From assembly GCA_039586795.1 (NCBI GenBank), contig JBDHJS010000024.1, positions 1 through 53,463 of the forward strand: a DNA stretch of 53,463 nt. The letters run 5' to 3'. The number at the start of each line of letters is the position of its first letter. The first letter of the stretch is position 1. Of the stretch, positions 16,401 through 25,400 are shown piece by piece. The position numbers are program-made. This DNA is from Gemmatimonadota bacterium (GTDB taxonomy: Bacteria; Gemmatimonadota; Gemmatimonadetes; Palauibacterales; KS3-K002).

Positions 16401-19400
16401 CTGGCGCGAGACGCGTTACCTGGATGCGCACTTGCGCCTGCTTCCCGACTCGCCATGGCCCCTGAGGCACTGGCAGCGGATACGTCTGCATCTGGGAACC
16501 AGCGAGGCGATGGCCAGGGTCGCGCTTTTCGACGCGGAACGCCTGCAACCCGGAGACGGTGCACTGGTCCAGCTTCGCCTGGAGAGCCCCGTCGTGGCGC
16601 GCACCGGCGATCGTTTCGTGGTCCGCTTCTACTCCCCGGTGACGACGATTGGCGGCGGAGTCATCATCGACCCGTGGGCACGCCGACGCAATCGCCTGAC
16701 CGCCGACGAAACGCGTGCGCTGAACGAGCTGGCCGGGGGAGACGGTCGGTCACGAGTGATCAGCGCGGTAGAGGGGGCTTTGAATGGGGTTACCGAGGCC
16801 CAGTTGGCTCTCCTCACCGGAACTCCCCCGAGTCTCCTGGTAAAAGATTTGAGCACGCTTGCCGACGACGGCGTCTTGCGCGCGGTGGAGGGGCGCTGGT
16901 TCAGCGTGGAAACGATGCGAGCCACGCGGAACGCGATCCTCGAACTCATCGCCAGCACGCATGCTCGGGATGCGGGGGCCAAGGGCATCGGACTCGAAGC
17001 GCTCCGCAGCACGCTGGGTGATGCGTCACTGGTCAACGCCGCCTTGGGGGAACTGGAGGCGGACGGCCATATCCGGATCGACGGCGCCGTAGCCGCGCTC
17101 AAGGATCACGTTCCGCGCCTGGATGCCGGACAGGAAGAGCTCGCCGCCAGGGCCTCGGCTGATATCGCCGCGGCCGGCCTCATGCCGCCGCGGCTCAAGG
17201 AACTCGCAGCAAACCTTGGCGTCTCAGAAGATGCGATCCTGCCGATTCTCAAGTTTCTGGCCGACGCCGGGGGGTTAGTCCCCGTTACGCCCGACCTCTA
17301 CTTGGACGCCGGAGCCATAAAGGAAGCGAAGAAGCGGGTCGAACGGGTGTTGGTAGAGCATCCCGAGGCCCCGCCCTCGGAACTCCGGGACGCGTTGGGG
17401 GTAAGCAGAAAGTACCTTATACCACTACTTGAGCACCTGGATGCGGTGGGCTTCACCCGGCGGACGGCGAAAGGGAGAGTGCTTCGACAGGGCTCATGAA
17501 GTAAAAGAAATTCTTGCTCGTTTCTGCCCGCTGCGGTATCTTGGAGTACGAAGCAATCGGGCGCAACTGGGCATTCAGGAGGATGTTAGCCGACTCAACG
17601 CTACAGATCCAAGGAAGGAAGGGCGAAATTGAGGCACAGTATGATGGCTGTGCTCCTCGTCCTCATACTCGTGGGCTGGCCTGACGGTCAGGCCTTCTCA
17701 CAGCAGACAGACACGACCACGGCCACTCAGCAGCAGGAGACTGGGCCCCGTGGCGTGACGTTGGAGCAGAATTACCCCAACCCATTCCGCCGGGACACGC
17801 GGATACCGTTCGTCTTGGGAGCTGATATGTTCGAAGACGGGCGGCCCGTCGTTGTCACTGTGCGGATCTACAATGTACTCCACAAACAGATCGCTTTCCC
17901 CACTGCCCTGGATCACCCCACAGGTACCGGCCGGCCAGCACGTGAACTAAGATACGAAAGACCGGGTCGTTATCTGCTTTACTGGGATGGTACTGACGAT
18001 AGTGGTCGACGCGTGAACTCGGGCATCTACTTCTGCCAGATCACGGCCGGCCGGTCGCAGGATGTGATTAGGATCGTCGTCAGCAACTAGTCCGGTAGCG
18101 ACTTCCCTCTCAATCAACGAAGTAAATGAAGGCGCCGCACTGTTCGCACCAGCGGATCTCGTCGTTCGTCTTGACGGTTGCCGTGGGCACGGCCATGAAG
18201 CAGCCGTAGCACATACCGTTGAGGACGGGAACAACAGGCCGGGGGCGACGGTCGGAGATGAGCCGGTAACGCTTCTCCACCTCAGGCTCGAGCTGTGATT
18301 CCATCTCGTCGATCTTCGAGGTGAGCTGGGAGACGGCGTCTTTGGGTTTGACCCTGAAGACCTTCCGCTCGATATCGTGGCTGTGCTCTTCGGCCGCCTC
18401 CTCCAGCTCTCGTCTTTGCGCTTTGAGATCCTGAAGTTCCAGTAGCAGTTCGAGCTGTTGGTGCATTCGCTGGACCTCCAGTTAGACCTGTTTCTCGTCC
18501 AATAACTCGAGGAACTGCCCGGGCGACTCGATGCTCTCCAGCCGTTTGGGGACGTCGCCTTCCCGGCAAAGCTGAGCGATCTTGCCCAGCACAGGCAGAT
18601 ATTGGTTTGAGACTTCGAGTGGCGGAGCGACTATGAGAAAGAAGTTAGAGACCGGCTTGTCGTCGATAGCCTTGAAGTCGATGGGTGGCAGTTTTCTGCC
18701 GAAAGCGACGCGCAACCTATTGACCACCAGGGAGCGGCAATGGGGGATGGCGATTCCCTTGCCGATGCCGGTGGAGCCCAGGTTCTCCCGCCGTTTGAGC
18801 ATCTTGAAAAGGATGCCCTCTGATTTGTCCGTAAGATCGAGCTGTGAAATCAGCTCCTTCAGAATTGCGTCCTTGCTCTCGCCTTTGAGGTCGAGATCGA
18901 TCACATCTTCGGTGAAGAACTCTCTCAGTTCCATTCCGACCTCCGATTTCGCCTCGGAGCACCTGGAGTGGTCCGGGCGGCTCATCAAGTATCTATGACC
19001 CAACGGCCCAATATGGCATAACGATCCCCGCTCCAAAAGGCTCTTGCCAGAATACGATGGAGCCCCCGTTTGACTGCCGCCTCGACTCCGGTATATTGCG
19101 CCGCCGGAGCACCGTCCCACCCCTGGATTCCTGAGTATGAGACCTGATCGTTTACAGGCCCTGCTGGAACGGCTCCAGCAGGGGAAAGTGTCGGTTGAGG
19201 AAGCGCTGGAGCAGCTCGAGCATCTGCCGTTCGAGGATCTCGGGTTCGCCAGAGTCGACCATCACCGGGCCGTTCGGCACGGCTATCCGGAAGTCGTGTT
19301 CTGTGAGGGAAAAACGCCGGATCAGGTCTCGAAGATCTGCGCCCGCCTGGCTGCCGCGGGAGACGGATTGCTCGCCACACGAGCGAACGAGACAGTCCGC

Positions 19401-22400: not shown

Positions 22401-25400
22401 GTGACGGTCGGCGTCGAGATTCGGGAAGATCGAGCCTACTTCTTCAGCCAGCAAATTCCTGGTGCCGGCGGTCTCCCGTTGGGCGTCGAGGGACGGGCCG
22501 TGGCGCTGCTCTCCGGCGGCTACGACTCCGCTGTGGCCGCCTGGATGCTCCTCAAACGCGGTGTCGAACTCGACTACGTGTTCTGCAACCTGGCGGGCAG
22601 CGCCTACGAGCGGGCGGTCCTCAGTGTGGCAAAGCTGCTCGCCGATGAGTGGAGCTACGGCACACGACCGAGGATCCACGTTATCGAATTCGAGGAGCCG
22701 GTCCATCTGCTCAAAGAGAGCGTGAGTGAGAGCTTCTGGCAGGTCATCCTCAAGCGCCTGATGTACCGTGCTGGGGAACGGGTAGCCCGTGAGATGAAGG
22801 CGCACGCCATCGTGACGGGCGAAGCCGTCGGCCAGGTCTCGTCTCAGACACTCGCTAACCTGCGCGCGATCAACGAGAGCATTGCGCTCCCGGTCCTGCG
22901 GCCGCTGGTCGGTTTCGACAAGACGGAGATCATCGAGCGCAGCCGCCAGATCGGCACTTACGCGCTGTCCGAAAAGGTCCGGGAATACTGCGCCCTGACG
23001 GAAGAGTATCCGGTGACCGGCACCACGCCGGCCGAGGCGGAACGCGAAGAGTCCAAGCTCGACCTCTCGATGCTCAACGAGCCGGTGGCCGAGCGTCGAG
23101 TTCTCGATCTGCGCGATCTGGATCCGACCGACTTGGTAACGCCCTACCTCTATACCTCGGAGATACCGGACGGTGCAGTGGTCATCGATGCTCGCGCCCG
23201 CTCACAGTACGACCCCTGGCACTACCCGGACGCGGTGCACCACGACTTTTGGGAGTTGTACGGAGGCTTCAAGAAGCTGGATCGTGAGCGCAAGTATGTT
23301 CTGTACTGCGATCTCGGGCTGCGGACGGCGCAGTTGGCGGAGAAGATGCAACGCGCGGGTTATGAGGCGTATTCGTTTAAGGGCGGAGTGCGGGCTTTAA
23401 GGGCGCTGGCGAAGGGACAGGCAGGGTGAACATTGAACGGTGGGCATGAACATTCAGCATGGAACGTGACTTCGATGCTCCGTGCTGGATGGGCAATGCT
23501 AAGTGTTCAAAAGACCGTAATCGGTGGCACGTACTTCCTGGGATTCTCCCTTAGTTCCACAATCACTGCCTGCACATCAACCAGCAACTTCAACAAACTC
23601 TCATAAAGCTCCTGATCCGTCAGCATCTGGCCCAGCGTGCCTTCGCCGGCCTCGACCATCGAGAGCAGCGAATCGGCGCGGACCGATGTGGAGGCGAGCT
23701 TTCGGTAGAGCTCGTCGTCCGTCAGCAACAGAGACAGGCTGCCTTCGCCGCTCACCAGCGTGTGGGTCAGCGTATCGAGTCCGGCGATCACCGAGCGTAG
23801 ATCGCCGTACAGATCTTCGTCTTGGGCCAGTTGGGCCAGCGCGCCCTCCCCGCGCCCGACGGCGCCCAGGAAGTCGTTGAGCGAGCGAGAGGTCTTGAGC
23901 AGCTCTGTGTACAGCGTTGTGTCCATCAGGAGGCGGCCGGCGGTCCCCTGGCCGGCGAGCAGGCTGTCCGCCATTTCTCGCATGTTACGGAGGATCGCAG
24001 CCAGGTCGTCCACCAGGGCCGAGGCGGATCCAAACATCTCCTCGTAGTCGAGCGCGTCGGCGCTGCGCACCGTGTCGCCTTCGGCCAGCGCGGGCATGTT
24101 GAGCGAACCGGGCGTGATGTCGATGGTCTTGTCGCCCAGCAGGCCTTGCGTGCGGATCCGTGCCTCCGAATCCGTGCGGATCAGCTCCGTCACCCCGACG
24201 TCGATCGCCAGCGTGATCTTGAGGACGTGCGACGGGTCCTGGCGTTCATCGATTGGCACGAACTCGATGAGCTCTACCTTGCCGACGTCCTGCCCGGCCA
24301 GCTTGACCCGAGCGCCGGTGGAGAGTCCGTTTCCGCTCGGCATCAGGGTGGTCAGCTGGTAGCGTTCTCCGAACACCGCACCGGTATCACCGATGAAGAA
24401 GACGGCGACCGCGAGCACGACCAGCGCCACGGTGACCGCGACCCCCACGCGAACCTGGCTCCAGCTAATCCCGGCGTTCATCTAGCGCGCAACCTCCTGC
24501 CTCAGTCCTGGAACTCCCGTACGTATGGGTCGGTGGAAGCCACCATCTCCGCCGGCGTTCCGTAGAAGCATATGCGACAGTCCTTCAACATCGCGATATG
24601 CGTGGAGACTTCCAGGACCGCCTTGACGTCATGGCTGACCAGGATGCCTGTCACATGCAGCTCTCTTTGAAGCCTCTTGATAAGATCGACTATCGTTCGC
24701 GACGTCAATGGGTCGAGCCCCGTCGTCGGCTCGTCATAGAGCAAGATCTTGGGGTCGCCCGCTATCGCCCGGGCGATCCCGACCCGCTTGCGCTGGCCGC
24801 CGGACAGCTCGGCTGGTAGGCGCTTGCCGAATTCATCAACGTCCAGGTCCACGAACGCCAGCGACTGCGTCACGCGTTCGATGATCTCGTCCTCTGGCAG
24901 CCTCTGATGCTCGCGCAGCGGGTAAGCGACGTTCTCGAAAATCGTCAGTGAATCGAACAGCGCCGCCGCCTGAAAGACCATCCCCATCTTCTGGCGGACC
25001 TCCAATACCTCTTCGAACGAGAGCTGATTGATGTTCTCGCCGTCGATCAGGACCTCGCCCGTATCCGGCACGAGCAGCCGCAGGATGATCTTCAGAATAG
25101 TCGATTTCCCGACGCCCGAGGCTCCGATGATGGAGAGCGTCTCGCGTTCGCGAACCTTGAATGTGACGTCGCAAAGCACCGGCTTCTCGAAGGTCAAATT
25201 CAGCCCCTCCACCTCGAGGATCACCGGTGCCTGCCCCCCGGAGGTCCCGGTGGATTCGGATGGCGAGTCGTGTGCGAGTCGGTGCTCGTCGTTCATGAAG
25301 TAAATAGTACCGAGATCAGCAACTGCGTTAAGAAGTAGTCGACGGCCAGGATGAGTATCGATGCTGTTACGACCGCTCGAGTCGTGCTAACGCCGACGCC

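Follow-up and report, generated by a model that had tools for sequence, protein, structure and literature searches.

GreA is a near-universal helper of RNA polymerase, which allows the enzyme to excise errors and restart. The window analyzed here, the whole 53,463-nucleotide contig stretch from a Gemmatimonadota bacterium of the KS3-K002 family (genome G000), contains the place where the sister family carries greA. This locus raises the question of whether the gene is truly gone from the genome and its family and, if so, how its loss is borne.

Absence of Gre from the genome and its family

The preliminary description reported no GreA/GreB domain in G000, and every search we ran agrees. Profile searches of G000 with PF01272 and PF03449 returned nothing over the cut-off (best E values 0.73 and 0.52), an order-specific Gre profile found no match among 88,484 six-frame ORFs (hmmsearch --max, best E 0.91), and tblastn found none (best E 0.02). 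The order-specific profile, which was run unfiltered, was built from 28 proteins, 27 from the sister family plus the copy in G022. With these three profiles, 28 of the 31 KS3-K002 genomes, G000 included, were Gre-negative. By profile search 83 of 90 sister-family genomes were Gre-positive, in line with the earlier statement that this family mostly carries greA. The family-wide lack was also described correctly in outline; the exceptions are 3 of the 30 other genomes rather than 1 of 18.

The absence of greA from the KS3-K002 family is real and lineage-wide, and is not an assembly gap. It is very improbable that assembly or binning alone explains the missing gene and that the copies in G010 and G022 are the true family gene. 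All genomes checked do look like MAGs, at 65–98% completeness, and the three closed family genomes claimed earlier need correction: of four single-contig genomes, two (G014 and G017) consist of scaffolded pieces with runs of 100 N between them, while G004 and G005 are N-free in the one stretch checked in each. From completeness, however, about 27 Gre-positives would be expected among the 31 genomes, and 3 were observed. The controls rpoC and ptsN were detected in 29 and 28 of the 31, respectively, and the slot is read through without greA in G000 and 14 other family assemblies.

The greA slot and the remaining Gre copies

In the sister family the order of the slot is ssrA–greA–mlaD, and in the KS3-K002 family it is ssrA–thiI–mlaD (Table 1). 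All 14 sister loci have ssrA upstream of greA, and 13 have mlaD after it. In 18 family genomes besides G000, thiI adjoins mlaD; it is placed elsewhere in all five sister genomes examined, in four of them before uppS, a place where frr–uppS is uninterrupted in G000. The family ancestor lost greA from this slot, and thiI, which both families own, now stands there. No Gre remnant was found in the DNA flanking thiI in G000, and a promoter and terminator scan of its slot gave a result at chance level.

Table 1. Features in and around the former greA slot (window positions)
Feature	Position	Strand	Evidence and remarks
Short coiled-coil and C4 zinc-ribbon protein	18110..18466	-	PF02591, weak (E 2e-4); flanking marker in both families
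PTS EIIA, ptsN-like	18482..18934	-	PF00359; left synteny anchor
larB-like, AIR carboxylase domain	19137..19892	+	PF00731; outside the greA slot
GAF-GGDEF diguanylate cyclase	19889..21355	+	5' of ssrA, outside the slot
ssrA (tmRNA)	21425..21779	+	ARAGORN; Rfam RF00023, 170.8 bits
Spacer	21780..21959		Short tandem units form an imperfect inverted repeat; without Gre remnant
thiI (THUMP-ThiI-rhodanese)	21960..23429	+	Fills the slot that is greA in the sister family
mlaD	23507..24481	-	PF02470; right synteny anchor

The preliminary description had larB, the cyclase and thiI together in place of greA. Its identifications of the ptsN-type EIIA, larB-like, GAF-GGDEF, thiI and mlaD genes stand, but only thiI is in the slot: ssrA, directly in front of thiI, had been overlooked, and larB and the cyclase gene lie outside it. 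At the equivalent place larB occurs in 2 of the 14 sister loci (G099 and G050), both of which still have greA; none of the 14 contains the GAF-GGDEF cyclase gene.

The three members that carry Gre (G010, G022 and G024) count in favor of an assembly or binning artifact. All three copies lie outside the slot and none clusters with those of the sister family, and G010 and G022 too have thiI beside mlaD. The G022 and G024 proteins are complete, with both Pfam domains and with the residues D36 and E39 that are invariant at the coiled-coil tip (alignment A1); the G010 protein is cut off by the contig end and retains the acidic tip. In the Gre tree the G010 and G022 copies cluster with families f3 and f7 (98/94), apart from the sister-family copies, which form a single clade (100/98). 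The G024 copy is of a 33% identity type on a long branch, adjacent to a carB that resembles the native gene at only 53%; it and the tree's two Verrucomicrobia rows, also long branches, were left out of the interpretation. In favor of a genuine resident, the flank of the G022 Gre contig has 77.5% DNA identity to a congener, the level of the core genes (78.6%). Judged from these comparisons, this one copy of the three may be a real re-acquisition. Scans for its relatives recovered only the copy itself and two distant matches in genome_contigs, as well as one metagenome contig of 1.9 kb, and a protein-cluster search gave no usable taxonomy.

Beyond the family, Gre was present in every further family of the class that was searched by profile (f2–f9). 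It was found in none of 15 genomes from other classes of the phylum, none of 13 from the class of G122 and none of 11 from g60, a genus in another family. The loss in the KS3-K002 family is thus not unique, and Gre-less lineages recur in the phylum. The earlier remark that Gre-less free-living bacteria are rare outside cyanobacteria was overstated in view of these counts and of other groups in print (PMC4598747).

The Gre-less classes, and greA contexts that vary outside the order, would fit a phylum ancestor that had no Gre, with other families gaining it later. We consider this improbable, because families f2–f9 carry Gre, the sister copies are one clade in one slot, and a single loss is simpler than several gains. 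Ancestral loss is therefore favored, and a family-wide loss is supported by profiles, synteny and tree alike. Gre is retained in >90% of related genomes and so is useful to them; this retention, together with the possible regain in G022, is a point against the loss having been tolerated.

RNA polymerase and candidate substitute factors

Cyanobacteria lack Gre and have high intrinsic RNA hydrolysis, and four of their β′ residues (V773, D792, V940 and Q1136) raise intrinsic cleavage in E. coli (PMC7026648). The family likewise lacks Gre and has D at E. coli position 792, but it has F773, T940 and G1136 where cyanobacteria have V, V and Q. Its β′ is one chain (in G000 a single ORF of 1403 aa, in which the two halves of the trigger loop lie at residues 931 and 1118), and the SI3 measures about 170 aa, whereas cyanobacterial β′ is split and its SI3 is about 650 aa. 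The family also differs in having a DksA-like factor and in that its lack of Gre is a loss that can be dated, the sister family being Gre-bearing. Deinococcus radiodurans RNA polymerase (PMC4756841) is a model of lineage-specific tuning of intrinsic cleavage; Deinococcus keeps Gre, and the residues M1136, T937 and E455 are G, I and A in the family.

It is unlikely that the family polymerase has a high, cyanobacteria-like intrinsic proofreading activity that depends on other, not-yet-implicated residues. At about 77% β′ identity between the family and its Gre-bearing sister, F773, D792, H936, T940 and G1136 are identical in 24–25 family and 34–36 Gre-bearing sequences, except for one Gre-bearing A940, and the tested trigger-loop and bridge-helix positions are the same in both sets. 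D792 occurs in all 75 phylum sequences that cover the position, including Gre-bearing ones, as well as in the top two PDB matches, and is therefore not diagnostic; position 940 is T rather than A in the phylum. What such an activity could rest on are many family-specific residues in β and 60 β′ columns diagnostic of the family, of which 16 fall where Gre-bearing relatives are conserved. Examples are T665, R685, P903 and V1114 of G000, plus L760 before the bridge helix; among the 16, R replaces E. coli K681 on the rim helix to which Gre docks. However, only 1 of 62 diagnostic columns (K153 of G000) is common to both other Gre-less groups. An apparent enrichment on the rim helix (8 of 83 columns) was no excess when restricted to variable columns (p 0.24). 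These β′ counts omit G029 (75% identity, probably foreign) and a second G052 copy. The Gre-bearing set omits five single Gre-negative genomes for the diagnostic columns and tested residues; for the rim-helix and 16-column comparisons it retains the Gre-negative G034 and G051. Alteration of the 16 conserved columns, K681 to R among them, is a further point against a tolerated loss.

Slightly less likely still is that an unrelated protein, or the phylum's DksA-like protein with its acidic coiled-coil tip, serves as the transcript cleavage factor. As previously described, G000 has a DksA/TraR zinc-finger protein (PF01258 over cut-off, E 2e-10) and Mfd; the latter, like Rho, NusA, NusG and RelA, was detected by motif. 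The DksA-like protein is present in 29 of 30 genomes tested, all Gre-less groups included, with a near-identical tip and several conserved acidic hairpin residues, but Gre-bearing relatives have it in the same form, and we rejected it as a family-specific substitute. The zinc-ribbon protein beside the ptsN-like gene was rejected because it is common to the sister family, as alignment across both families' loci showed. In G000 no TFIIS/TFS ribbon (PF01096, best E 0.02) and no HelD (NF041464, best 48 bits against a cut-off of 419; UvrD-type helicases only) exceeded the cut-off. A search of 3,912 called genes for Gre-like coiled-coil hairpins did not recover its own controls, true Gre proteins scoring 0.28–0.40 against a threshold of 0.42.

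Probable tolerance of the loss

The explanation that we think reasonably probable from the sequence comparisons is an ancestral deletion of greA that was tolerated with no new replacement part, buffered by features found across the phylum. A rearrangement 3' of ssrA would have removed the gene. Backtracked polymerases could then be handled by intrinsic trigger-loop cleavage, Mfd and trailing ribosomes, while the DksA-like secondary-channel protein may lower misincorporation; all these buffers are present throughout the phylum. It looks as if the loss was tolerated and no substitute arose, because the β′ tuning positions are unchanged and other branches of the phylum are Gre-less. The special compensation hinted at earlier thus finds no counterpart in the cleavage-tuning positions or the DksA-like protein, which match those of Gre-bearing relatives. 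The phylum-wide D792 and T940 may reduce the cost of losing Gre, and so may explain why its absence recurs in several branches. We give only a little less credence than to a substitute factor to a third proofreading route in Gemmatimonadota, in which a non-Gre, non-TFIIS factor, possibly the DksA-like protein, would stimulate RNA cleavage; Gre would have become superfluous on several occasions, and greA would now and then have been taken up again by gene transfer.

The Gre-less groups known so far lack a close relative with Gre, and whether they lost the factor or were always without it, and what makes living without it possible, is undecided (PMC7026648). The organisms studied here are uncultured, and nothing new in place of Gre was found among the candidates examined; the Gre-less family, its Gre-bearing sister and a second Gre-less genus nevertheless form matched pairs for testing whether compensation is needed. 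Aquificaceae, Dictyoglomaceae and Fusobacteriaceae resemble the family in lacking Gre lineage-wide, but are listed as without any secondary-channel factors (PMC4598747), whereas the family retains its DksA-like protein. E. coli can do without both of its Gre factors, and DksA may be what allows this (PMC4598747). The ΔgreA ΔgreB strain (PMC4598747, PMC7026648) thus also lives without Gre while DksA is present, but it is a temperature-sensitive laboratory mutant and the family's condition is a long-standing natural state. DksA fails to resolve sequence-dependent backtracking (PMC4598747), which is another point against a tolerated loss.

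Absence of Gre in the genome and its family

As the preliminary description had stated, the genome containing the window (G000; 107 contigs totalling 4.68 Mb, completeness 97.8%) has no detectable GreA/GreB gene. Neither PF01272 (best E 0.73) nor PF03449 (best E 0.52) matched it over the cut-off, in searches for which 9 of 14 control genomes passed. An unfiltered profile based on 28 Gre sequences from this order reached E 0.91 at best against its 88,484 six-frame ORFs, the best tblastn match had E 0.02, and no Gre remnant was found in the DNA flanking thiI on both sides.

Among the 30 other genomes of its family, KS3-K002 (f1), PF03449 matched three and PF01272 two; a lineage-specific alignment matched the same three as PF03449. 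Were the gene universal, summed completeness predicts about 27 positives in the 31 genomes, and rpoC and ptsN were detected in 29 and 28 of them, respectively. The sister family (f2) is mostly Gre-bearing, as claimed earlier from 11 of 12 genomes: we found Gre in 83 of 90. Absence throughout f1 stands for most members, but the exceptions number three of 30, not one of 18. As for the closed genomes cited earlier, four f1 genomes are single contigs; G014 and G017 contain 100-N joins (G017 rpoC is split over two places), whereas G004 and G005 had no N in the single stretch checked in each.

The same pattern recurs in the phylum. We counted 300 other phylum genomes, each at least 90% complete, including as positives four unpublished ones (G172, G208, G265 and G288) on which the conclusions do not depend. 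Gre was present in 21/23 genomes of f2, and in the other families f3 to f9 in 120/126, 69/71, 6/6, 49/49, 3/3, 4/4 and 2/3, respectively; it was found in none of nine, three and three genomes of f10, f11 and f12. By the N-terminal profile it was also missing from all 13 genomes in the class of G122 and all 11 of genus g60, inside f3 (G177, G334, G375, G389 and seven more). PMC4598747 names Aquificaceae, Dictyoglomaceae and Fusobacteriaceae together with cyanobacteria as Gre-less, and the earlier view that such free-living bacteria are rare outside cyanobacteria is overstated.

Published papers place KS3-K002 and Palauibacterales in Gemmatimonadota, in agreement with the family name used here. 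Our literature searches, one of them diluted because 'grea' matches 'great', found no paper on Gre absence in the phylum; two papers that deal with the order do not mention 'greA' in their main text, though their supplementary gene tables could show the absence. Family f1 is a real and apparently unreported Gre-less lineage, and its value lies in the matched Gre-bearing sister family.

The slot between ssrA and mlaD

In f2, greA directly follows ssrA, the tmRNA gene, at all 14 loci, which were picked as Gre-positive, and mlaD follows greA at 13 of them. The order ssrA–thiI–mlaD is unbroken in 13 of the 20 f1 regions fetched; two more show ssrA–thiI up to the contig end, and five stop or break earlier. 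G014 has this order as well, and thiI adjoins mlaD in G017, G018, G019 and G022. The order indicates that thiI alone fills the slot. The preliminary description, which overlooked ssrA, had larB and a diguanylate cyclase replacing greA along with thiI; only thiI lies in the slot, and larB sits at the equivalent place in two of the 14 f2 loci, which retain greA. Because thiI is located elsewhere in five of five f2 genomes, at 52–56% identity, we regard it as moved, not imported. The 3' ends of ssrA can attract rearrangements. That f1 lost greA from this defined slot we hold with very high confidence.

One f1 member has about 6 kb of extra genes between ptsN and larB (locus L144, G027:C47).

Locations of features in the window and in other contigs
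Feature	Location	Remark
selB	window 15601-17499	same conserved neighbourhood
Short coiled-coil and C4 zinc-ribbon gene	window 18110-18466	retained next to ptsN in f1 and f2
ssrA	window 21425–21779	
Inverted repeat, imperfect, made up of short tandem units	window 21790-21930	between ssrA and thiI; arms have 31 further blastn matches in G000; resembles REP or MITE element
tRNA-Sec	window 31031-31127	same neighbourhood as selB
greA of f3/f7 type (L039)	G022:C294:1960-2436	contig flank looks native to genus
Helical paralogues (sites include)	G000 C4:44958, C44:14057, C44:16168, C94:9204, C55:39719, C70:10714	

Three Gre-bearing members of the family

In G024 a divergent Gre gene lies on a 2.5-kb contig behind a carB that resembles the native copy at only 53%, and is probably foreign to the genome. 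Those of G010 and G022 lie outside the slot, on contigs of 4.0 and 4.9 kb, and in a tree of 42 proteins cluster with f3/f7 (98/94), away from the f2 clade (100/98). G010 has two tricorn proteases: the one on this contig, which is likely contamination, is only 66% like the other, and that other is 90% like a congener's. Among 301 class genomes (two of them unpublished, without bearing on the conclusions), nothing exceeds 63% identity to the G022 protein, and related Gre proteins at 70–89% are present in metagenomes. Over 1.5 kb the G022 contig shares 77.5% DNA identity with a congener, the level of its core genes (78.6%), so that re-acquisition of greA by transfer is plausible.

Two bins hold an rpoC that looks foreign: L071 (G029:C122), 75% like that of G000 where the G029 congener's is 92%, and L098 (G052:C72), in a genome with two rpoC genes.

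RNA polymerase and proposed tolerance of the loss

Intrinsic cleavage is reported to be raised by the β′ substitutions F773V, N792D, A940V and G1136Q (E. coli positions; PMC7026648) and by G1136M, I937T and A455E (PMC4756841). All 24–25 f1 sequences covering each site have A455, F773, D792, I937, T940 and G1136, as do nearly all of 32–36 Gre-bearing relatives; D792 is phylum-wide and also occurs in the two top PDB matches. There is no f1-specific change at the known tuning sites. Rim-helix and bridge-helix numbering was verified against PDB chains; trigger-loop positions carry a presumed numbering, from residues named in the paper and characteristic motifs. Within the rim region V673–E685, where Gre docks according to PMC7527559, the single f1-diagnostic change is K681R (24/26), and enrichment of such β′ changes in the rim was not significant. 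One of the 62 diagnostic β′ columns is common to both other Gre-less groups, and β differences are scattered (19 f1 versus 16 Gre-bearing sequences).

We somewhat favour a loss tolerated through the polymerase's own RNA cleavage, through Mfd and ribosome pushing (PMC8501993) and through error reduction by the DksA-like protein (PMC4598747). D792, and perhaps T940, may have given the whole phylum a head start for life without Gre. Sixteen diagnostic β′ columns at otherwise conserved positions count against tolerated loss.

Both proteins reported earlier were seen. The DksA/TraR zinc-finger protein, on G000 contig C42, occurs in 29 of 30 genomes drawn from every group tested, and its hairpin tip is nearly identical among them; Mfd, like Rho, NusA and RelA, was recognized by motif only, and NusG by position and sequence. 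Neither a TFS ribbon nor HelD was found over the cut-off in G000, and a screen of it for Gre look-alikes failed its control. The genome also encodes a set of no fewer than nine paralogues (115-195 aa), each carrying a pair of hydrophobic helices at the N terminus and a helical hairpin at the C terminus.
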